Virus genome (UHGV): UHGV-0019120
Strand: one strand, 5' to 3'
Length of the DNA: 31,192 bases
Origin: a virus
The notes below the pieces were generated by a model. The model worked only from the letters and a program-made list of their open reading frames with translations. It was not told where the DNA came from and made no database searches. The position numbers were made by a program, and so were the translations under genes. Shown piece after piece: positions 4,635-24,227 of the stretch. Each line of letters begins with the position of its first letter. Positions within the stretch are counted from its first letter, which is position 1.

Positions 4635-5146
4635 TGATGGCCCCCGTCATTTCTGGTGCTTTTCACCGTGCGGCTTCTTAAAAACCTGCCATCACGAACA
4701 ACAGACACTTCTCGTTTACCCAACCTCATTTCACGGCGGTAACATTCAGAAAATGCCTCGTCCGGCATCATATAAATGCGACGCTTCGCCTCCGTATCCA
4801 GAAGGGAACGGCTTGGGGTTACATATAAGAACGACTCATCAATAGGGACAAAACCACGAGCAAGAATTGCTGGCAGAATACCAGGAAGAACGCAGAAAAC
4901 AGCTCCACGATGCAGCAACATCTGGTACTCCATGACCTCCGTAATCCCCGTAACGACTGTTACGGTGTCACGTCTGTTACGGCTGGCAACCAGTCGCTGC
5001 ACACCTCCAATTTTCTGCTCTACAGATAGACGTTTGCTATCGTTATCAATATGATCGATAACAAATCCTTTAATCGTTTGATCAAGGTAGTGCACCACCT
5101 GCGATTGAATCTGGTGATTATCACCAAAGAAGGCCAGAATCATCAT
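4631..5146 (-). CDS. hypothetical protein
   Basis: 171-aa ORF inside the minus-strand operon; no motif recognised. Confidence 0.45.
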   Translation of the reverse strand: MMILAFFGDNHQIQSQVVHYLDQTIKGFVIDHIDNDSKRLSVEQKIGGVQRLVASRNRRDTVTVVTGITEVMEYQMLLHRGAVFCVLPGILPAILARGFVPIDESFLYVTPSRSLLDTEAKRRIYMMPDEAFSECYRREMRLGKREVSVVRDGRFLRSRTVKSTRNDGGHQ

Positions 5147-5637
5147 TCCTCAAGCCTCCCAAGTGCTGAACGCCGGGCGTTGCTAATCTCCTTATGAATC
5201 AGCTCGATATCGCTGGAATCTTTATTCTTAAGCTCCAGCACGGTAATCGCATCACGAACCTCTGAAACGGTTACGTGTGAGTGTTTCCAGCGAGCAATGA
5301 ATCGCGGACCGCGTAGATTGCAACGCTCCGCAGGCATCCCCAGCTCAGAGAAAACCGCTTTCAGCCTTGATAAGCAGTTAACAGGGAGATTCCCTTTGAT
5401 CTTGTTCTGCCGAACCGATGTGCCATCGCTACGCTGGCGCTGACGTTCGGCAAAATCTGCCGCCCATTGCTGGACGTTAATCCGGCCTTCCGAATACGCC
5501 ACCAGCAGCGTCAGGTTATCCGCACGAGGGAATCTCTCGAAGCGATACCAGGCACCAATCAGTGATGACGTAAAGCCAAACTTTCTGGCAACACCAATTT
5601 GGCCTCCATTTTCGTCAACCCACTCCTGAAAGGTCAT
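5143..5637 (-). CDS. putative Cro/YdaS-like HTH regulator with C-terminal extension
   Basis: 164 aa; N-terminal GGQIGVARKFGFTSSLIGAW...P resembles the YdaS/Cro-type HTH; transcribed divergently from the CI-like gene with shared operators. Confidence 0.45.
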   Translation of the reverse strand: MTFQEWVDENGGQIGVARKFGFTSSLIGAWYRFERFPRADNLTLLVAYSEGRINVQQWAADFAERQRQRSDGTSVRQNKIKGNLPVNCLSRLKAVFSELGMPAERCNLRGPRFIARWKHSHVTVSEVRDAITVLELKNKDSSDIELIHKEISNARRSALGRLEE

Positions 5638-5656: not shown

Positions 5657-5774
5657 ACCACGATACGTGGTATTAAAACCACATATCGTGAGTTTTTCAA
5701 TGGGCGAAACAAAAAATAACCTTCTATTTGTGGTCCACCTCTCGTCTTACCATGTGAAAACCACTAAATGTGGT
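5657..5774. promoter_or_regulatory. operator cluster in the divergent immunity promoter region
   Basis: ACCACGATACGTGGT (5657-5671), imperfect ACCACATATCGTG (5678-5690), half-site TTTGTGGT (about 5727-5734), ACCACTAAATGTGGT (5760-5774); all follow ACCAC-N5-GTGGT. Confidence 0.6.
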
Positions 5775-5811: not shown

Positions 5812-6468
5812 ATGAAAAGCAACGACGAGAACATCAAGAAAGAAATAGGTCTGCGCATTCAGACTCTACGGAAACAATCCGGCATGACTGCCGGAGATCT
5901 CCAGCAAGTCACTGGAATAGGCTTAAGCACCTTGCAGAACTATGAGGCCGGATTAAGACAACCATCTATACCTGCCATCAAGAAAATCGCGCACGCCCTG
6001 AAAGCATCAGCGCCTTATATCGCGTGCTTAACAGATAACCCGTTCCCACCCCAGAATACTAACGCTCCTGTTATTCCTGGGCTTGTAGCTATAAAAAATG
6101 ACATAGCATCGCACGCCGGAGAAAAGCCAGTGCTGGCGATAGAACAGGAGATTCTACGAAGCAAGAACATCAACCCATCGTCTCTGTCAGTTCTCCAGAG
6201 CAACGATGAGTTAATGTCACCAACAATATCCCCAGGCTCCCAAGTCCTGATTAATACAGACGATACAGAGATTCATGAGGGGATCTATGCCCTTGAAGAC
6301 AGAAATGGCCTGGTTGTTTTGAGGCACTGTAGAGTCATACCGGGTGACAATGCTGTTATGCTGTCAACCGAAAGGGATGCTGAAATGAACACTAAGCATC
6401 TGAATAACGAGGAATTTAAGCGTTATAAAGTTCTTGGCCGCGTAGTTAGTGTTGTCAACTGGTTATGA
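5812..6468 (+). CDS. CI/LexA-type prophage repressor (HTH_XRE plus S24-like C-terminal domain)
   Basis: 218 aa; N-terminal HTH (LRKQSGMTAGDLQQVTGIGLSTLQNYEAG), C-terminal LMSPTISPGSQVLIN and FKRYK...GRVVSVVNWL resembling the LexA/CI Ser-Lys autocleavage domain. Confidence 0.75.
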   Translation: MKSNDENIKKEIGLRIQTLRKQSGMTAGDLQQVTGIGLSTLQNYEAGLRQPSIPAIKKIAHALKASAPYIACLTDNPFPPQNTNAPVIPGLVAIKNDIASHAGEKPVLAIEQEILRSKNINPSSLSVLQSNDELMSPTISPGSQVLINTDDTEIHEGIYALEDRNGLVVLRHCRVIPGDNAVMLSTERDAEMNTKHLNNEEFKRYKVLGRVVSVVNWL

Positions 6469-6510
6469 TACACAGCACGGCGAAAGCCGTGCATTTCTAC
6501 GCTCAAAAAA

Positions 6511-6525
6511 ACCACATTTTGTGGT
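6511..6525. promoter_or_regulatory. operator copy downstream of the repressor gene
   Basis: AAAACCACATTTTGTGGTTTT palindrome (core 6511-6525) adjacent to TTGACA at 6528. Confidence 0.5.
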
Positions 6526-6560: not shown

Positions 6561-6935
6561 ATGGAATTACATACAGCCAATAAAAACGAAACTCTGATCA
6601 CTGCTGGAATCGAAATCCAAGCGTTGAACATAGCGATTGAGTGTATGTTATGCCAAATCATTGATAATGAGAAAGATATCGACTGGATAGAATCTATCCT
6701 TCATCTGGCATCAGAACAAAAAGTCTGCCTCAAAACGGCCTTACAATACGATGTGCCAGCGGTATCGAAGCTGTGCCAGCCATTGATGGCATATAACAGG
6801 GCTATTATTTCTGTATGCCTCATGATTCTTGATGAAACCCCCCCTCTTAGCGACCGCTCAGAAGCTGCTCTAACCCTCTCACGTAAACAGCGACAGCTAG
6901 CAAATCAACTGATATCAACGATAGCTGACCTCTGA
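6561..6935 (+). CDS. hypothetical protein
   Basis: 124-aa ORF downstream of the repressor; AAGAGG RBS; followed by hairpin 6940-6959. Confidence 0.4.
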   Translation: MELHTANKNETLITAGIEIQALNIAIECMLCQIIDNEKDIDWIESILHLASEQKVCLKTALQYDVPAVSKLCQPLMAYNRAIISVCLMILDETPPLSDRSEAALTLSRKQRQLANQLISTIADL

Positions 6936-7062: not shown

Positions 7063-7085
7063 CCAAACACATGGAGTCTCGACAA

Positions 7086-7739
7086 ATGACTATCTCTGTA
7101 GGTATTTTCAACGGAAAAGGCGGCGTAACCAAATCAACAATTGCCCGTGCTTTAGCAGTTGCTTATGCAAAGGCTGGCTGGAATGTATGCCTGATCGATA
7201 TGGATGTGCTTAACGGAACGGTAACGCGTTGGGTACAACGCAGAATGGCCAACAATATCGAACCAGCAATCGCGGCGCAGCCGTGCGGCACACCATCACA
7301 AGTCCAGAAAATCATCGAATCAGAAGTATACGACCTGGTTATCGTCGATGGCGGTGCCTACGCATCTGAATCAGTACCGAAGCTATCTGAATTTCTGGAT
7401 ATGGTTATTTTGCCAACCCGATTCTCTACCGATGACCTGGAAACCACCGTTAACACTGCTCACGGCATCGTTAAAAAGGGTGTACCAATCAAGAAAATTT
7501 GCATGGTGTTTTCCGGCGCGGCTGAAAACGAAGCTGACTATATTGAAGCCCAAGAGTACCTGGCTAATACGCCATACTTTGTTGTCGATAAGTACATTCC
7601 CCACAAGCCAGCTCTGAGCAAAGCTCAGGATAAGGGCTTAAGCCTCATTGAGTGCTCATACGTTGCGCCACGCAAAAAGGCAGACGACGTTATTCAGGGG
7701 ATTATCAACCAGCTTGAGGCTCTGACTACTGCCGCATAA
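7086..7739 (+). CDS. parA: ParA/ParF-type partition ATPase
   Basis: Deviant Walker A FNGKGGVTKST, A-prime motif VCLIDMD, B-like DLVIVDGGA; start placed at ATG 7086 (GGAG RBS) rather than track start 7071. Confidence 0.8.
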   Translation: MTISVGIFNGKGGVTKSTIARALAVAYAKAGWNVCLIDMDVLNGTVTRWVQRRMANNIEPAIAAQPCGTPSQVQKIIESEVYDLVIVDGGAYASESVPKLSEFLDMVILPTRFSTDDLETTVNTAHGIVKKGVPIKKICMVFSGAAENEADYIEAQEYLANTPYFVVDKYIPHKPALSKAQDKGLSLIECSYVAPRKKADDVIQGIINQLEALTTAA

Positions 7740-8252: not shown

Positions 8253-8276
8253 TAAAAAAGGCCCCCGAAGGGGCCT
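8253..8276 (-). terminator. intrinsic terminator for the minus-strand small gene
   Basis: GGCCCC-CGAA-GGGGCC hairpin; A6 on the plus strand gives a U-run on the minus strand. Confidence 0.55.
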
Positions 8277-8281
8277 AATCG

Positions 8282-8404
8282 CTACTTGCTGCTAATGTTT
8301 ATCGTCACATTCAGAGCGTTATCAGTAATCTTCCAACCCTCCCCATGTGGCGTAAACAAAGCCCCAGTAACAACGATAAAAATACACATACAGTATTTTT
8401 TCAT
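8282..8404 (-). CDS. small hydrophobic peptide (about 40 aa)
   Basis: MKKYCMCIFIVVTGALF... with AAGGG RBS and own terminator; track ORF 8282..8464 is longer. Confidence 0.3.
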   Translation of the reverse strand: MKKYCMCIFIVVTGALFTPHGEGWKITDNALNVTINISSK

Positions 8405-8802
8405 TGTATGGCCCTTACAGGCCGTTTCACGGCATCCCCACCGACGAAAACAACGCGAGAGCAAGCACGGCTGCTTGTGCTTGCATGTACGGCAACGGAG
8501 AATCCTCCCCTAAAGTCGGTGCCCGGGTGCGAATCGGCGGGAAGGTCCACAGGTATTTTACGATTATTTTAAGATTAGTAATAGGAAAGAAATTAAACGA
8601 AAAAACTCGTTTATTTTCACAAAATCAGTAACCTACCCACAATCTGTGAGTTTGCAGGCACAACAAGAACCACAATTTTTTGAAGCATAATAGTGGACTA
8701 TTATTACCTTTTGGGTAAAATTAACTTGCTGCTTGTGCTTGCGTGGTTGTTTATACAACGACGTTATGCTGAAAGGACCGCGAATCCGATCAGCACGAAA
8801 GA

Positions 8803-8828: not shown

Positions 8829-8883
8829 GTTTCTGCCTACCAATAAACCCACGCTATGTGGTTGTCTCTGTTAAAATCCCGCC

Positions 8884-8994
8884 GTATTGACATGAATGCG
8901 CCATTGGTGGACACTTTCCGAGCCGTAGCAAAATCTACGGTCGGGATTGGAACCCCGTAGACACAATGGCGCATACCGCGTTAGCGGTTTTTTT
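8884..8994 (+). ncRNA. candidate structured small RNA (c4-like antisense regulator)
   Basis: Extended -10 TGtTAAAAT near 8866-8874; 9-bp outer stem 8898-8906/8964-8972 enclosing two hairpins, one with loop ATTGGAAC; ends at short hairpin plus T7 (8975-8994). No ORF. Confidence 0.35.
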
Positions 8995-9160
8995 ATGCGT
9001 AAAGCACTGCTACACCCAAATTATGGTGGGGCGTGCGGGGGAGTCGTAAGACTCGCCGGTTCGTCATTGTGTCCGGTAGTTCCAACCCTGCACGTCTCAC
9101 CACCCAATGATTGGAACCTGACGGTGGTGAGTATCCTTAACCTTTAAGGGAATCATCACA

Positions 9161-9352
9161 ATGACAAACCTACCCCATGACTATTACGTCAACCTCGTAA
9201 AGATCCTTCTCAAGAAAGCCTCATACGCCGATAAATTCCGCCTGGCTGAAATCATCGAGCGCGAAGCTATGCGCATCGCCAGCAACGATAACGCTGTTTC
9301 TGACGCAAAAATCTCCCTCGTAACCAAAGTAGTTATGGGAGGTGCAAAATGA
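9161..9352 (+). CDS. small protein translationally coupled to the antirepressor (icd-like position)
   Basis: 63 aa; AAGGGA RBS; stop overlaps start of the next gene (ATGA-type overlap at 9349-9352). Confidence 0.4.
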   Translation: MTNLPHDYYVNLVKILLKKASYADKFRLAEIIEREAMRIASNDNAVSDAKISLVTKVVMGGAK

Positions 9353-10494
9353 AAACGCTTCCGACCGTTAACACCCTACAGCCTATCCTGCATAACCAAA
9401 TCCCTGTCATTACTACCGAGTTACTAGCACAGCTTTACGGCACTGAGCCGGTGCGTATTCGCCAGAATCATCATGAGAACAAAGCACGTTTCGTTGAAGG
9501 GAAACACTTTTTCAAAGTTGTTGGTAATGACCTTAAAGAATTGCGGGTAGCTTTAAACTACTCTCAAAATCCAGTTTCACCTAAAGTCCGCTCCCTCATC
9601 CTCTGGACAGAACGCGGGGCTGCACGTCACGCTAAAATGCTCGAAACCGATCAGGCGTGGGATGTATTCGAACGGCTGGAAGACTGCTACTTCAACCAGA
9701 ACGCGCAAACGGCCGCGACCGTAACCGTCTCACCAAACAATGCTCGTGAGGTTGTCGATACGCTCAACGCTAAACCAATGTATTACGTTAAGGTGTGCAA
9801 CAACGAGCCACTCACAACCTCAGCCGATGTTGCCCAGGCATTCAGCACCACAAACAATTCCATCGTTATGGCCATCGATGCGTTACGCATTCCTCGCACA
9901 GCTGCGGCGCGTCACTTCTTTAAAGAACAACGACCGCTGGAAGGAAGCGACCGCGAAATAACAATCTATCGCATGACAAAAGACGGATTTACCTTGCTCA
10001 TGGAAAGTATCGACGGTCCAGGCGTGAAGGATATCAAGCTGGCCTACATTGAAGCCTTTAACGCTATCAGCAGCATGTTAAAGGCAGAATACGAGCGAAT
10101 GCTATACAACCGACTGTATCAGGAAACAAAGATTATCCGAACGGCAACAGAACATCATCGGCTATTAACGGAACCAAACTACCGCAAGACACTAATCAAA
10201 GAGTTTGACAAGGCGACGGAGAAAACTAAAGCGGCACTAAATCTACCAACAATGACTAAAGATGATGTGATATCAGCCTTACTTCTTGATCTGCTCAGAA
10301 ACGTCAGAGCACTTATCAGTTTTGACGAAAACCTGAATCCTCAGCTCAAGCTACTACCACCGACAGGCAAAGTAGTCGACCAGGCTGATCACAACAGCAT
10401 ACTCAGCGTTCTGGATGCAAACCTGCCAGCCAGGACACTACAGGATCTGATAAAAACATGTGCTGATAAGCTGGCACAGAAAAGCAGACCATAA
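9349..10494 (+). CDS. phage antirepressor / regulatory protein (ORF6N-like plus Rha-like domains)
   Basis: 381 aa; N-terminal ITTELLAQLYG...EGKHFF...ILWTERGAARHAKMLETDQAWDVFERLEDCYF resembles ORF6N; central TTSADVAQAF...YRMTKDGFTLLM...IEAFN resembles Rha. Confidence 0.7.
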   Translation: MKTLPTVNTLQPILHNQIPVITTELLAQLYGTEPVRIRQNHHENKARFVEGKHFFKVVGNDLKELRVALNYSQNPVSPKVRSLILWTERGAARHAKMLETDQAWDVFERLEDCYFNQNAQTAATVTVSPNNAREVVDTLNAKPMYYVKVCNNEPLTTSADVAQAFSTTNNSIVMAIDALRIPRTAAARHFFKEQRPLEGSDREITIYRMTKDGFTLLMESIDGPGVKDIKLAYIEAFNAISSMLKAEYERMLYNRLYQETKIIRTATEHHRLLTEPNYRKTLIKEFDKATEKTKAALNLPTMTKDDVISALLLDLLRNVRALISFDENLNPQLKLLPPTGKVVDQADHNSILSVLDANLPARTLQDLIKTCADKLAQKSRP

Positions 10495-14029: not shown

Positions 14030-14658
14030 ATTATATCTACGATGGTAGGAAATCTTTTCCTATGTAGCAATAGAAATTTACTACATTGCGTATAAGACAA
14101 GTTTTCTATGTCTAATAGGAAATGAGGTTTCTTACGTTTTATCGCGTTCTGATGGCTACTGTGTGCGTATTTATCGACGTTTATTGATAAGGCTCGCCCC
14201 TTCCTCCTGCAAAGCCCGGCCGTAGGCCTTATTTCGGCCTTATATAAATTGATTTTGTATAGTTCGAAACGCGCCGTTTCGAAAAGGATGATCAGGCTGC
14301 TCCATGCCTCCGGCAAGTGCCGGAGGAGGTATATTTGAGCGTAGCGACTCGAACCGGCGCGAGCTTTAGCTCGCTGCAAGGGCGAACATATTCACAGGCA
14401 AAGCCTGTGTAAGTTAAATAAAGAAAGTCTTAATAAAAGAAAGTAATTTTGCATTTATTTGTTTAGTGCATCTATTATAAAAAACCATTTGCATATACAT
14501 ATCAAAACTGTGGATAACTTTATTAGCCGATGCCTGTAAAGGCGATATTTTTGCTGTGTTCAGGTTTAGAGAAAATTAATTTAGATTGTTTTTTGAACAG
14601 ATGTTTTATTGCGACGTAGATAATCCTCCGGTAAAACCGGATTCATCATTCAGGTGGG
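14030..14658. other. candidate replication origin (oriR-like) downstream of repA
   Basis: AT-rich tract 14400-14600 with perfect DnaA box TTATCCACA (minus strand, 14509-14517) and a cluster of GC-rich perfect hairpins at 14263-14409. Confidence 0.45.
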
Positions 14659-15639
14659 TTAATGTTGGAGTGATTTCCAGGTCTTTCTTAACCTGTTATA
14701 ACGCTGCTCAACGAGGGATCGTAAATATGCAAGGTCAGCTCCAGGATACATGCCATCAGCAAATTCCTGGCTAACCTCTCTAGTGATTTGATGACGAAGT
14801 TCGGCCTCTCCCTTTTCCCGAACAAGACGCGCAGCTCTCTCCGCTGCTTTCTGTTTTGCCTTTATCTCTCTGGCCGTCTTCCTCTGACGCCATACATTCT
14901 CCATCTGCTCCTGAATAACAATACGCTTATAATCAGCCTCCGTTATCGCTTTTTTAAGCCGTTCGCTATTCCTCGCATTGAAGTAATTAAGTTTCTGGCT
15001 AACCGCACGTCTCCATGCTTGTTCAGTAATACCAACGGTTTCCAGCAGTTGATCACGAATCTCTATTTTCGCAGGCCAATACTGTTTATTCACCCGATCC
15101 CAGCGACGTTCATAATCAATAAAACCTAACGCTTTCAGTTGCGACAACGCCCTTGTACAGCGCGTTATAGACTTGTTCCCAGCTTCGGATACGGTAGACA
15201 GGCCGCAAAAATCAGACAACGCCTCAGCACTGGCCAGAACCCGCTTAGAAATGATGTTTACATGGTACAACATCGCAGCAATCAGAGCATTAAACGCCCG
15301 ACGACGATGTTCGTTTATCCGGCGTTTCCGCTCTGACGGTTGATTAACGTAGAACGCAACCTCACACGTAAGATCACGACCATTAATGCGCTGTAAAGCA
15401 TCAGATAACACCAGCGGCAGCTTGTGCGTATGGCGCTTTGGAGGCTGGAACTCCGGCGACAAATTACAAACGTAAGCTGAACGTAGAGACGGCATTGGTC
15501 TATCCATATGTTCGCTCTTGCGTCCACGGAAAACCAACGTATAATGGGAGTTGTCGAGGCGCCCATGGATTGTTGTTGTTGGTTTTCCGTGGATGTCGCA
15601 AGAAGCCCGCAGATTTATCTGCGGGCTTTTTGTTTCCAT
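14659..15639 (-). CDS. repA: IncFII-type plasmid replication initiator RepA
   Basis: Central LSTVSEAGNKSITRCTRALSQLKALGFIDY closely parallels R100/R1 RepA1 as I recall it; Arg/Lys-rich coiled C-terminus also similar. Start uncertain: ATG 15639 or internal ATG 15507. Confidence 0.75.
   Translation of the reverse strand: METKSPQINLRASCDIHGKPTTTIHGRLDNSHYTLVFRGRKSEHMDRPMPSLRSAYVCNLSPEFQPPKRHTHKLPLVLSDALQRINGRDLTCEVAFYVNQPSERKRRINEHRRRAFNALIAAMLYHVNIISKRVLASAEALSDFCGLSTVSEAGNKSITRCTRALSQLKALGFIDYERRWDRVNKQYWPAKIEIRDQLLETVGITEQAWRRAVSQKLNYFNARNSERLKKAITEADYKRIVIQEQMENVWRQRKTAREIKAKQKAAERAARLVREKGEAELRHQITREVSQEFADGMYPGADLAYLRSLVEQRYNRLRKTWKSLQH
15520..15635 (+). ncRNA. candidate antisense copy-control RNA (CopA-like) opposite the repA 5' region
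   Basis: 15-17-bp perfect inverted repeat (15524-15538 / 15578-15592) then a strong plus-strand intrinsic terminator (15603-15632); no plus-strand coding potential. Promoter not identified. Confidence 0.35.
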
Positions 15640-15675
15640 ATCTGGTCATTTTCCAACCAGACACCCACAATCATA

Positions 15676-15690
15676 ACCACGTTACGTGGT
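15676..15690. promoter_or_regulatory. CI-type operator palindrome upstream of repA
   Basis: ACCACGTTACGTGGT, same ACCAC-N5-GTGGT architecture as the immunity operators; abuts a minus-strand TATGAT -10 candidate. Confidence 0.5.
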
Positions 15691-16105
15691 TTTACGAGAA
15701 CTCTACCACAACACTTTCGGTCATGCACGAAGTCTCTCACTGATCGAACGATAATCCACCAGTAAAAGGATCTAAATTGGATCTCGTTTTGCGAGCATCA
15801 TACTACTGGCCTAACTCCAGTCAATGATTCCCAGCCAGAAACCTGCGGTAAACTCATCGTTCAGCAATATGCTGTCCGGCTTCAAAGATAAGGTGACATC
15901 ATCCCTTAACAGCGCGGCCAGTTCAGTTAAAGGGCTGTTCTGATTTAATGCTGGCCACTCATACCTGGTAATAAGTGGTCAGTCTTAACACTCACCATTT
16001 GATTGCACCCGTGTTGACGATTTGTTACTGGATATCAGACACGCTGGATAGCCAGTAGAAACATACCATTAAAATTATTACAATAATTGGTCACATGATT
16101 ATCTT

Positions 16106-16669
16106 ATGCTGAATAATAAAGATATGAATATTAATGAACTTAAAGACTGTATTCACTATGAAGTAATCGGTAGCGAGCGTCCTTTCTCCTGGCGAAAGGC
16201 AATTGTTCGCGCAATAAAACATAGAAGGGTTCGTTATTTATTTTGGTGGCGCATAGCCAAATACCTTTTTGATAAAGGCGGATACTGTCGGAAGATTGCG
16301 GGAAAAATAGAACGTTTCATTCTTGATAAATATAATGTAACAGTCCCTTTAACTGTAAATATAGGGAAAGGCTTTGATATTTCTTATCTCAACAGTGTTG
16401 TTATCGGTCACAAAGTAACAATCGGTGAAAATTGTTCAATTAAGCCCGGAGTAACTATTGGACTTCGCGGGGAATTTAATGATATGGATATTGTTATAGG
16501 GCATAATGTGACCATTGGTTGTAATGCCACCATTCTTGGTGGCAAAGTGCGTATAGGAAACAATGTCACAATAGGTGCTCATGCATTGGTATTGCATGAT
16601 ATTCCTGATGATTCAACATTCATCACTAAATTTCAGTCTGAAGTTATCTGCTCGTCCTCCCGAACATAA
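16106..16669 (+). CDS. hexapeptide-repeat (left-handed beta-helix) acyl/acetyltransferase
   Basis: 187 aa; repeated [LIV]-G-x-x-x-x-I-G hexapeptides; only plus-strand gene next to the tail module; 3' end overlaps the convergent fibre assembly gene. Confidence 0.6.
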
Positions 16670-17250: not shown

Positions 17251-20096
17251 TATGCAAGCCTCACAATATAATTAAATGCGATGTTTTTAACGGTGTTTTC
17301 CGCGTTACCAGCAGCGTTAACGGTGATGGTGTGTCCATGTGAACCAATCGCAACAGAGTGCGTATGAGCGCCAATACCAACAGTGTGTGCATGTGCCCCA
17401 GCACTTGTAGCGGTACCTGATACTGAGTGGGTATGTGCGCCAGAAGAAGGCACAGTTCCATTCCCCACCACCGTGCCACTTGATGAACCATCCAGCCAGT
17501 CGAAATTCATACCGCCACTGTTTGGTCTCCTTAATGGAACGGTATGAGTATGTGCGCCAGCACTATTTGCAGTACCAGATACATTATGGGTATGTGCACC
17601 TGTGTTATTCGTTGATTTAGTACCGTAATCAAACGACGATGTGGTTTTCGTACCCAAATCCGTATTGGATGCGCTGGCACTGTGGGTGTGCGATTTAATG
17701 CCATCCTGTTCCTGAGACAATACGGCCCGACCACTGGCGGGTTTGCCCTTGATTGTCCAGCCGCGCATATCTGGAATAACACCAGAAGGATAGGCAATAG
17801 CCAGTTTCGGATATGCTGCCTTATCAAACGTCTGCCCCTGCATGATTGCATAACCTGCAGGTGGCGTATCTGATGGCCACGGCAGCGGAACACCTGGCGG
17901 AAACGCTTCAATATTTGCCGAGCCGTCAAATTTTACGCCGTTAATTGTCCTTGCCGTTTTCAGCTTTGTTGCTGTAGCAGCATTGCCGGATAGTTCGCCT
18001 GAAAGACCACCGCTGAATGTCTGTTTCGCCATCCATGTCTGAGCTTCGTCGATAATTGGCACACGTCTTGTCGTGATCGTGCGGCTTCCCGGATTTCCTG
18101 AAATGCGAACCATAAAAAAGCGGTAGTTGGCTTTACTTACAGTGCTGCGCCATACATGCATTGAGCGTCCCGAACCAGAATCATCACTCGGACCGACTGA
18201 GATGTTTATCAGGTTGCCATCAATGACGCCCCAGTCCATACCGTCGGGAATATTGGTCATGTTATCAAGCCGAACGGTTATCAGACTGCCCGGCACAAAA
18301 TCGTAGGTCTGCCAGTCCAGGCTGGTGAGCTTTGCCACAGCACCGCCGATACCCAGATTCAGGGGAAGTGAATACGAGGTGTAGACTTCCCGCCATTCGC
18401 TCCATGAGCTGCCGGTAAAGACGCGCTCAAAGGTGCGGCCTTTAAGGGTTGTACCTGTTCCGGCAGTTGTATAACGCTGCCATACATTAACACCATCAAA
18501 CCGCCTCAACACTTCCAGAATACCGAGGACTGTCACGCCGTTTCCGTCCAGTACTGGACCGTTGGTCGCTTTACCTGTAACGCTGTAAATACCTGGTGAA
18601 GTCACATCATTCAAATCCCCGTCGTAATAACGACTCTCTGACTGATGACCGACTCTTAACCACGGTTCCCACTGCGGATTTGATGCATCCCAGCTTGCCG
18701 CAAGGCAGCGGACGTACATATTTCCACGGCGAGTGGTATAACGTTGCGTTCTTCCATAATTCCCGCCTTCGAGGATCTCAAGCGTCCCCTGAGCAAAGCC
18801 GCCTTCCTCTGGATAATTGCGTTCATATGAAGCTATAGCCGAGCTACTGTTACGCCATAAACCAAGATGCTCGGCGGCTCCAAGCGTATTCAGGTCTATA
18901 GTCGTACTCAAAGAGCGGGTAGCTGATTGAGTGTGACGCCATATGCCCCACGGACCATCAGAGCCATTCCACTTATTGGCGAGTCTGCGTATGTATACAT
19001 TGCCGTCTCTCGTGGTGAAGCGTTGCGTACCTGCAAAATTGCCGGCAGCAAAAACCTCAAGCACACCGACAGCATTATCTTCCGGGAAATTTTTCTCCAG
19101 TGTTGCGTTAGTTGAGGTAGCTTTAGACCAGATCCCCAGATAAGCCTTAACGGGACCAAATGTATTCAGATCAGCATCAAGCGGCATTTCGCCATTGTTT
19201 TTCATAAACGTCAGGCTGGTAACGCCAACATTGTCCAGAAAAGCTGATTTATCCTGGATATCTGCACCGTTCTGATTTTTCGCCAGACGTGAATTTGCGT
19301 TGTCATTTGCTGCCTTGACCGCTTTTGGCGTTGCCGCCTGCGTTTCAGACGTACTGTTAGTGGCACTACTGAGCTGAACTATCCCTTTTTGTGCCGTGGT
19401 GGCATTCTGGGCGGTATATTTTCCGTCAGCCAGGTCATATGCAGCCTTAACAGCCTTAGGCGTCGCTGCGAGCTTTTCAGACGTGCTATTGGTGGCATTA
19501 CTGAGTTGAACAATGCCTTTTGATGTTAAAGTTGCATCAGGATGATTACGTGATTGCTCATGTTTTACAATAGCTTGCTTAAGCCGCTTTGCTGAAACAG
19601 CCAGGGAATCATCTGTACCTGCATCAATTTCTTGTTCATTAGCAAATCTTGCTACTCCAACAACAGTTTCGGTTGCGGGAGGGTTAATAAACTCAACATC
19701 ACCAAATGTAATGTTTTTAGTATCAAGATTTTTAATTGCTATATCACTTGATATTAAAGCAATTGTAGAAGATGCTTTATTTATTATTACTTGTTCTTGC
19801 GAGTATACAGCAAACAATGTTCCTTTATTTGTATACAAACCTATTGTATGGACAACATACTCATCTTTACTATCATCCTTCGCAGTTACATGAATGGTAT
19901 CAGGAGAAACGACTTTGCCTCCTATTGTGGTAAGTCGCTTTATTTCATCTGTTATTTTTGTTTGTGTGGTTGATGTGGCATAATATCTACTACCTAAACC
20001 AACAGAAACGATCTCAACTTTATTTGTTCCAGTCTTGTTGGCATTAACCAGCGCCTTACGCCCGGCGTCAGTCATCGTAAATAATAATTTACTCAC
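17250..20096 (-). CDS. tail fibre protein (P2 gpH-like, His-box C-terminal domain)
   Basis: 948 aa; [16 protein letters not shown] and duplicated QLSxATNSTSE..[10 protein letters not shown] repeats match P2 gpH as I recall; C-terminal GAHTH repeats typical of receptor-binding tips. Confidence 0.85.
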
Positions 20097-23225: not shown

Positions 23226-24227
23226 TTAATACCCATTAATTACTCTTCGGACATCAATCGAGGTGGTATAACCACTAGTCCCAATTGAATGCACAGCTTT
23301 CGATATAAGATATTTTCCAGAAAATGAACCGAATCCCTCCAGATTTATAGTTACACCAGCTACCAATCTGGTGTCTCCAACCAATACTAAAGATCCGGTA
23401 TTTTGATATCTATTTTTAAGCCGCAAAGCAGCCTTTGCCTTACGTTTTGCTTCATCTAAATTAGCTACCAGTTTTCTTATCTTAAGATTCGACCCTTCTT
23501 CTACGGATGGATCTACCCAAGTATACGAAAGCGACTTTCTTTTTTTAGGTACGCGATATTTGCACGTGCAACTTTTATACAAATCTGTAGATTGTGTGCT
23601 AAAGCTATATCTGATTATCTCATCAATACCTAACGTAAGCGTAGCGATAGGATCTTTTTGCTCAAACATCTCTTGAGCAAATATTATTAATTGGCTATCA
23701 GTGACCTTTAACGACAACCCTTCATCCTGGCAAAGTCGATGGAGAAATTTTAAATCGCTTTCCTCCATTTGATCTTCACGCGCATAATATGGATTACTAT
23801 CACCATCAATAAGAAACAACAGTTCAAGGTTAGCTAATTTAGCTATAGAAGTTGCTATATCTTTAAGAGTTGTTTTTTCCCATGCATTACTTTTTAAATC
23901 ACGTCTAATGCCTGATGAAATAGGAACAGAAACAGCAGTTACCTCAACCACAGAAGGTGGTCCAGAGCAAGTTATGCCATCTACCTGGAATTTCCCGCAC
24001 TCAAGGACGATTTGATTTATAGGCTTAAAGCTCAAATCAATAAAATCACCCTTTTTAGGTGTCCAGTCTCCAGACCATTTCCCATCATCATTTTTTAATA
24101 TAATAGAAATATCATCGACCTGACCATCTTCATTATCTGTATAAGACATTGACAAAACATCAGGTGACATATGAGCGGTAATATTTACATTCTGATATAT
24201 AACATCAAAAAGCGTTTTACGTAACAC
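23226..24227 (-). CDS. putative gpD-like baseplate hub protein
   Basis: 333 aa after the X-like gene; assigned by position and size. Confidence 0.55.
   Translation of the reverse strand: MLRKTLFDVIYQNVNITAHMSPDVLSMSYTDNEDGQVDDISIILKNDDGKWSGDWTPKKGDFIDLSFKPINQIVLECGKFQVDGITCSGPPSVVEVTAVSVPISSGIRRDLKSNAWEKTTLKDIATSIAKLANLELLFLIDGDSNPYYAREDQMEESDLKFLHRLCQDEGLSLKVTDSQLIIFAQEMFEQKDPIATLTLGIDEIIRYSFSTQSTDLYKSCTCKYRVPKKRKSLSYTWVDPSVEEGSNLKIRKLVANLDEAKRKAKAALRLKNRYQNTGSLVLVGDTRLVAGVTINLEGFGSFSGKYLISKAVHSIGTSGYTTSIDVRRVINGY

Follow-up and report, generated by a model that had tools for sequence, protein, structure and literature searches.

[quoted passage not shown] We regard it as probable, short of firmly established, that the CI-like repressor acts in trans at a proximal repA promoter and plays there the role that CopB has in IncFII plasmids. 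The lysis/lysogeny switch of this phage-plasmid would then probably also set its replication. An earlier note on this DNA had proposed that an immunity-type operator in front of repA links a CI-like or Cro-like regulator to replication, and the strong comparative evidence presented below supports that proposal.

The window is part of an Escherichia coli phage-plasmid

The window represents part of a myovirus phage-plasmid of E. coli that is ~47 kb long. The region around the repA-proximal site is 99% identical to non-mobilizable E. coli plasmids of ~47-49 kb, such as p853EC2 (NZ_CP040921.1), and on the repA side the identity is 98% with Yersinia phages vB_YpM_39, 41 and 44, which were isolated as virions. 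The family yields infectious virions, as exemplified by Yersinia phage vB_YpM_44. Of 5426 complete E. coli genomes, 71 carry the control region, plasmid-borne every time; among them is the reference strain ATCC 25922. Nearly all deposited annotations of the family read 'hypothetical protein'. The name pSLy3 was considered for the family and rejected, because it belongs to a 114-kb plasmid of another family.

Exact copies of the palindrome in the window

The motif had been reported at four places. Our scan of the whole window found five exact copies of ACCAC-N5-GTGGT, at 5657, 5760, 6511, 15676 and 23947, the last of which had been overlooked. The motif is non-random: none of 100 dinucleotide-preserving shuffles of the window contained any match, and our own chance estimate for the exact motif is ~0.03 per window (31192/4^10). 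When up to two mismatches were allowed, 19 matches were obtained versus 8.1 expected, including a degenerate site in the immunity region (ACCACATATCGTGAG, 5678-5692) and CCCACGCTATGTGGT (8848-8862). The four regulatory copies have A-rich 5' and T-rich 3' flanks in common (aaaACCAC...GTGGTtt), and three of them are perfect 6+3+6 palindromes. The copy in front of repA (ACCACGTAACGTGGT in repA orientation) differs from operator O1 of the lytic promoter (ACCACGTATCGTGGT) by a single central base.

The fifth exact match is the following:

23947-23961: inside a tail gene, within codons for GPPSVV, without the A/T flanks

Synonymous differences abolish this copy in Salmonella and Klebsiella, and it is missing from Yersinia phage vB_YpM_44. 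Since it consists of tail-gene codons, has no A/T flanks and is not kept in relatives, it was rejected as an operator and probably represents a coincidence outside the system.

The motif forms the operators of the immunity region

Three of the sites lie between two divergent regulatory genes:

5143-5637, minus strand: Cro-like gene, first in the leftward operon, 164 aa (PHROG 7452, function unknown)
5657-5671: O1, directly downstream of the -10 (TTTAAT, 5672-5677, minus strand) of the leftward early promoter
5678-5692: O2, two mismatches, 21 bp from O1
5760-5774: O3, proximal to the CI gene
5812-6468, plus strand: CI-like repressor, with HTH_3 and a degenerate S24-like C-terminal domain (Pfam) and repressor PHROG matches

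On the strand opposite to CI, the early promoter reads TTGAAA, aa, O2, TTTAAT, O1, 34 nt and the ATG of the Cro-like gene, with O2 occupying the 17-nt spacer between the -35 (TTGAAA, 5695-5700, minus strand) and the -10. Because this layout, with O2 in the spacer and O1 over the start region, is typical of repressor operators, the motif can be read as an immunity operator. Degenerate sites similar to O2 recur in relatives, and CI homologues adjoin the operators in all lineages.

The S24 match of the CI-like repressor scores 18.4 bits, under the Pfam cut-off of 23.3. Inspected by eye, its C-terminal domain contains an NDELMSP motif and is missing the LexA-type catalytic Ser/Lys; GDSMxxP is the motif of the self-cleaving repressors LexA and 434 CI. 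The CI-like repressor is probably not RecA-cleavable, so that induction would probably proceed through an antirepressor. The N-terminal region of the 164-aa Cro-like protein appears, by eye, to form a helix-turn-helix.

An IncFII-type replicon with a structured leader lies downstream of the repA-proximal site

The replicon and its control region comprise the following elements:

14400-14517, minus strand: putative origin, with DnaA box TTATCCACA (14509-14517) and a stretch of 23-30% GC
14659-15507, minus strand: repA, encoding an IncFII_repA-family initiator, start corrected to 15507 (alternative 15492)
15518-15637, plus strand: predicted CopA-like antisense RNA, complementary to the repA leader (CopT-like)
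15676-15690: O_rep, the repA-proximal operator, an exact match and perfect 6+3+6 palindrome
15700-15708, minus strand: candidate proximal repA promoter, extended -10 TGgTAGAGT, invariant alignment columns
15769-15783: two GATC sites at a distance of 11 bp (GATCC-N6-nGATCC), immediately downstream of P_up, read from the sequence
15797-15824, minus strand: P_up, an upstream promoter-like site, TTGACT-16-TATGAT, 10 of 12 consensus positions in a consensus scan

RepA matched PF02387 with E = 6.1e-45 and 154 bits (cut-off 22.9), over residues 53-319 of a 326-aa ORF. The ATG of this ORF, at 15639, is missing in the Salmonella, Yokenella and Klebsiella relatives, and this loss, together with a Pfam domain that begins at residue 53, places the real repA start at ~15507 or 15492. 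The Salmonella RepA is annotated as 277 aa. In RefSeq and most databases the E. coli RepA has 325-326 aa, with an annotated start codon that falls within the terminator hairpin of the antisense RNA. The earlier description of the site as lying ~40 bp upstream of the repA ORF holds for the ATG at 15639, from which O_rep is 37 bp away, but this ATG is not conserved; measured from the corrected start, the distance is 170-185 bp. The site is thus upstream of the CopA/CopT-like leader and not directly before the repA coding start.

Inverted repeats in the leader form a long hairpin at 15523-15593 (16-bp perfect) and a terminator hairpin at 15599-15632, the latter followed on the plus strand by the T-run TTTTTGTTT. 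The plus strand of the leader folds with -68 kcal/mol (z = -10.2), and compensatory changes affect nine base pairs across five lineages. We predict that this structured leader, the supposed N-terminal extension of RepA, is a CopA/CopT-like antisense pair. An Rfam search of the leader returned no CopA-type family at threshold and only sub-threshold terminator-like matches. In the E. coli and Salmonella lineages, a short tap-like ORF that begins with ATG (ATGGGCGCC...) overlaps the start of repA; in the lineage of the Citrobacter freundii contig L024 this leader ORF has no ATG and carries an early stop.

TTATCCACA is the sole perfect DnaA box in the window and is located ~145 bp downstream of repA. 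The RepA family, the leader and the downstream DnaA-box/AT-rich region would together correspond to the usual IncFII layout with a putative origin. A copB gene was not found, there being no ORF on the repA strand between 15797 and 15690. In the early operon no other initiator or helicase was recognisable that could form a second replication system, and the same was true of the fully annotated Salmonella relative. Since no other is recognisable, the same replicon may also serve lytic replication. The one lead in that operon was a DUF3560 protein with a partial PHROG 'primase' match.

Promoter elements around the repA-proximal operator

The TATGAT that abuts the operator (15670-15675, minus strand) had been taken for a -10 element. 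The relatives have TATGAA, TAAGTA, TAAGAA, AAAACA, GAAGGC or TGCAAG in its place, so we discarded it as a conserved -10; the -35 upstream of it is poor (CTCGTA). Just upstream of the operator the relatives read TGnTAGA(G/T)T (Vibrio version TGGTAGATT), and this conservation makes TGnTAGAGT a candidate extended -10 of a proximal repA promoter. With the extended -10 at 15708-15700, the predicted transcription start would be at ~15693 and the operator at about +3 to +18. A simple sigma-70 consensus scan of the region flagged neither proximal promoter candidate.

P_up reads TTGACT-16-TATCAT in Salmonella, C. amalonaticus and K. aerogenes, and TTGACG..TAGAAT in L024; in the Yokenella relative L010 the -35 TTGACT is lost. 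It stands where plasmid R1 has PcopB, and the ~105 nt between it and the operator hold no ORF.

The repA-proximal site is conserved from Escherichia to Vibrio

The site was present at the homologous non-coding position in every examined relative with ACCAC-type immunity operators, and in the aligned repA sites of all lineages AC.AC-N5-GT.G is invariant. In Salmonella, Yokenella, K. aerogenes and C. amalonaticus relatives, with RepA identities of 79-84% and CI identities of 60-66%, the half-sites are fixed and the spacers vary (GTAAC, GTTGT, GATGT, GATGC). The Salmonella plasmids (47-49 kb; RepA 84%, CI 65-66%, upstream region ~75% identical) carry aaaACCACGTTGTGTGGT at the aligned position, and the rest of their exact copies are confined to the immunity region and the stretch behind the CI gene. 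The Yokenella (RepA 79%), K. aerogenes (80%) and C. amalonaticus relatives followed the same pattern.

The most distant cases came from Vibrio. Plasmid p1 of V. alginolyticus is a 36-kb siphovirus-type phage-plasmid whose CI and RepA are 26% and 27% identical to those of the window; it has only two exact copies of the motif in 36 kb; one lies within the immunity region, and the other, ahead of repA, comes after TGTGGTAGATT and before an antisense-type hairpin. Vibrio phage K308 (~36 kb) has two exact copies as in p1 and, in addition, a one-mismatch copy immediately past CI. In Vibrio the recognition helix of CI differs considerably from that of E. coli, whereas the operator half-site is identical. 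No clear shared operator was found in a second V. alginolyticus plasmid (L035) or in Aliivibrio phage H905, where TGTTG repeats in the rep-upstream, post-CI and immunity regions are of low information and not significant. A RepA search of genome contigs gave no confirmed relatives.

A contig of a conjugative plasmid (L026, Logan SRR15533060; RepA 62%) was set aside as evidence because its leader is dissimilar. Directly ahead of its repA, this T4SS-bearing plasmid carries a tandem pair of XRE-family HTH genes at the copB position (8968-9745), and these could be a plasmid-encoded equivalent of what is proposed for CI.

Immunity and repA sites changed together in the Citrobacter freundii lineage

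The C. freundii contig L024 (20.8 kb) has a RepA with 59% and a CI with 30% identity, a Mu-like tail and the maintenance-gene order of the window. It contains no ACCAC-type site. Instead, TTGTAGT occurs six times in its 20.8 kb, five times in the immunity region and once in the repA site, TGTAGT is also found just downstream of CI, and TTTTGTAGT is present three times versus 0.16 expected, as two immunity copies and the repA copy. At the aligned position the repA site is ACTACAAAACGTAGC (ACTAC-N5-GTAGC); compared with ACCAC...GTGGT, both half-sites differ symmetrically, at their third base. The immunity operators of the L024 type are only half-palindromic. Three metagenomic relatives have the same ACTAC-type repA site.

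Operator type therefore follows lineage at both loci, ACCAC in six lineages and ACTAC/GTAG in the L024 lineage, and the covariation amounts to one evolutionary specificity switch, seen in four near-identical control regions. In L024 the CI recognition helix has a different start (GIGLSTLQNYEAG versus GIPRSTIQNYEAG; GL versus PR). A third operator-specificity class was looked for and not found: the RepA homologues P0023 and P0024 all have ACTAC-type sites, and CI homologues of at least 60% identity are all of the ACCAC type. The early-promoter spacer of L024 (19600-19640) retains a CGTGGT half-site (cccctttCGTGGTta) among the GTAGT-type operators, which may be a relic of the ancestral specificity.

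Further operators precede the partition operon and possibly the antirepressor operon

Downstream of the repressor gene the following features were located:

6511-6525: O_par, between the CI terminator (about 6475-6492) and orf124, 35 nt ahead of the latter
8254-8550, minus strand: ryfA RNA (Rfam)
8848-8862: possible sixth operator, CCCACGCTATGTGGT, one mismatch, ~27 nt upstream of a TTGACA (8889-8894)
8922-8994, plus strand: isrK RNA (Rfam)
9019-9107, plus strand: C4 antisense RNA (Rfam)
9161-9352: 63-aa ORF after the C4 RNA
9349-10494: Ant-like protein with ORF6N and pRha domains

The 6511 site had been described as just downstream of the repressor gene. It does follow the CI terminator, and to this we add that it precedes an operon made up of orf124 (6561-6935), parA (7071-7739) and an 82-aa ORF. 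The placement of O_par is repeated in Salmonella, Yokenella, C. amalonaticus, L024 (GTAGT type) and K308.

The stretch at 8922-10494, with isrK, C4 and Ant, reads as a secondary immunity module like those of P1 and N15. The site at 8848-8862 comes after a terminator and ahead of isrK/C4/icd-like/ant. The matching region has one-mismatch sites in L028 and L029 and ACCACAATGCGTGAT in the Yokenella and C. amalonaticus relatives. This weak evidence suggests that the repressor may control the antirepressor operon as well.

A model for repression of repA by the CI-like repressor

In our preferred reading, a dimer of the CI-like repressor (5812-6468), encoded 9 kb away, would bind 15676-15690 in the lysogen. 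Bound at about +3 to +18, it would occlude the extended -10 promoter (15708-15700), and it may also partly block read-through from the upstream promoter (15824-15797). This would hold RepA at a low basal level, supplied by the upstream promoter and fine-tuned by the antisense RNA; as the sole initiator gene would be strongly repressed in the lysogen, a leak or read-through route is assumed. When CI is missing, as in a fresh infection, or inactivated, the promoter would open and RepA would rise, and the extra RepA would drive establishment or lytic-phase amplification. Because the C-terminal domain lacks the LexA-type catalytic Ser, inactivation would probably occur through the Ant antirepressor of the C4/isrK module. 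With one operator family at the lytic and CI promoters, at the partition operon and possibly at the ant operon, a single regulator could act on immunity, partition and replication.

Among the alternatives, the best surviving one, which we still consider unlikely, is that the Cro-like 164-aa protein (5143-5637), and not CI, is the main reader of the site and uses it during lytic development rather than in the lysogen, for instance for shutdown or retuning of plasmid-mode RepA. This protein is kept alongside the operators in Salmonella and L024, with a Vibrio likeness recognised by eye; its N-terminal region also diverges between the ACCAC and ACTAC lineages, and the unlike Vibrio CI helix facing the same half-site would leave room for the Cro-like protein to read it. 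However, in phiKO2 and PY54, the only tested systems, the prophage repressor occupies the repA-proximal operators and Cro does not (PMC4997575, PMC4488713). Moreover, the repA site is nearly the same as O1, which lies over the lytic promoter start and is a classic high-affinity target of a prophage repressor. Binding by CI and by the Cro-like protein would not be mutually exclusive.

A second alternative, which we judge improbable, assigns the site an architectural function, either long-range looping with the immunity operators or a roadblock, that would contribute to switch stability or homoimmune exclusion without a dedicated effect on a repA promoter. Dispersed operators do exist (5657-5774, 6511 and 15676), OR-OL cooperativity was left as an open question by the phiKO2 authors (PMC4997575), and any effect on the strong promoter-like site ~105 nt upstream of the operator would be that of a roadblock. 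Nevertheless, from Vibrio to E. coli the site stays beside an invariant -10-like element and directly upstream of the repA leader, and its distance to the immunity region varies between elements, which argues for local action on repA transcription.

Slightly less probable again is activation, in which CI bound at 15676-15690 would stimulate a weak downstream promoter from about -42, as lambda CI does at PRM, so that lysogeny would lead to RepA. A suitable geometry can be read (TTATGA at 15676-15671, 17 nt, GAAAAT at 15653-15648), and activation would resolve the paradox of a sole initiator gene repressed in the plasmid state. But such a promoter is not conserved: the stretch from the operator to the antisense terminator varies in sequence and length, L010, L024 and Vibrio lack the hexamers, and it is the element just upstream of the operator that is invariant instead.

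Finally, a chance palindrome or a hairpin unrelated to the immunity proteins, for example a backup antisense-RNA terminator, is very improbable: the plus strand (ACCACG-TTA-CGTGGT followed by TTTT) does resemble a weak terminator and similar operators were flagged as terminator-like by the scan, but the low chance expectation given above speaks against coincidence, and neither model can explain why the half-site matches the immunity operators lineage by lineage, nor the joint change of both in L024.

Relation to known phage-plasmid and plasmid systems

The RepA of N15 is described as being of the primase-helicase type and is unrelated to the IncFII RepA, and N15 is a linear lambda-like siphovirus, whereas the element studied here is a myovirus phage-plasmid with an IncFII-type replicon and an antisense RNA. 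As in N15 and phiKO2, an operator of the switch-region family is found at the rep gene promoter. In those phages the repressor CB binds three OR and two OL operators at the repA promoter, represses repA and cuts copy number, as seen in EMSA and copy-number data, and Cro does not bind OL (PMC4488713, PMC4997575); CB is non-self-cleaving in both phiKO2 and N15 (PMC4997575). N15, too, has an antirepressor locus under small-RNA control, according to the title of a reference cited in PMC4488713. The two OL sites of N15 lie between cB and repA (PMC4997575), whereas here a single operator lies 9 kb from the repressor gene. Unlike in N15, there is a further operator ahead of the partition operon.

In R1, a constitutive PcopB and a stronger PrepA both transcribe repA, CopB silences PrepA by ~90%, and establishment depends on lifting that block (PMC5717011). 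The present element shares with R1 the RepA Pfam family, tandem upstream and proximal candidate promoters with a dyad operator on the proximal one, a predicted CopA-like antisense RNA against the leader and a putative DnaA-box origin downstream of repA. It differs in having no copB; an immunity operator takes the place of the CopB operator of R1, and the repressor is presumed to be an HTH/S24-like CI with its gene elsewhere. It also differs in that no Rfam CopA match was obtained and in that the tap-like ORF is not kept in the L024 lineage.

The C1 protein of P1 is a single prophage repressor with many scattered operators, including one at a replication function and one at the c4-icd-ant locus. 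C1 controls a separate lytic replicon, and the plasmid replicon of P1 is autoregulated through iterons. The window resembles P1 in its dispersed operators and in its Rfam C4 and isrK RNAs and Ant-like protein. Unlike in P1, it is the plasmid-type replicon that carries the operator, and a second replicon was not recognisable.

The searchable literature yielded no description of this IncFII-linked arrangement of an immunity operator. The term counts of a 2026 preprint on phage-plasmid copy number did not include operator, antisense or IncFII. The principle has already been established by experiment in N15 and phiKO2, and here it would be applied to an IncFII-type replicon.

Possible consequences for copy number, immunity and exchange

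If the model is correct, one operator would turn the only replicon of a low-copy plasmid prophage into a lytic replicon. Loss of the repressor would make the copy number jump and hence change the gene dosage of any cargo, and homoimmune superinfecting genomes would be unable to replicate. In evolutionary terms, a phage regulator could replace the copy-control repressor tier of a plasmid. As an experimental handle, the system offers one site and a natural specificity variant (ACCAC versus ACTAC).

A wider reading, possible but in our view short of probable, is that these parts make up a portable immunity-plus-maintenance cassette in which a phage repressor has replaced a CopB-type regulator. 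Such a cassette would unite the CI-like and Cro-like proteins and their single operator family with the partition operon and a rep region under antisense control. The single plasmid replicon would serve in both lysogenic and lytic replication, CI occupancy of one operator would be the switch between them, and partition and antirepressor would be gated as well. It would have been exchanged, from Vibrio to Escherichia, among at least three unrelated virion modules (a P2-like myovirus, a Mu-like tail and an HK97-like siphovirus).

Additional observations on the replication regions

A third GATC is present at 15742-15745 in E. coli. The GATC pair is kept in all lineages, including Citrobacter L024, and also in a related conjugative plasmid; these sites might subject repA expression to Dam/SeqA sequestration. 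Homology to the relatives ends upstream of the repA control region, at about window position 15853; the gene found there in relatives is either a hin-type invertase or, as in the window, a hexapeptide acetyltransferase (16106-16669) by the tail-fibre genes. In L024 and L022 (9516-10004), an extra 162-aa ORF with a weak IncFII_repA match lies between the leader and the 277-aa RepA, and its stop overlaps the RepA start. K308 has a control region with the promoter-operator-hairpin order of p1, but a different Rep protein behind it. In Vibrio and Aliivibrio phage-plasmids, a conserved ORF of ~70-78 aa occupies the copB position, upstream of the promoter and operator; the coordinates noted for this ORF and for the K308 Rep are 17261-17494 and 17755-18474 in L036, about 9890-10125 in L033 and 5088-5297 in L034.
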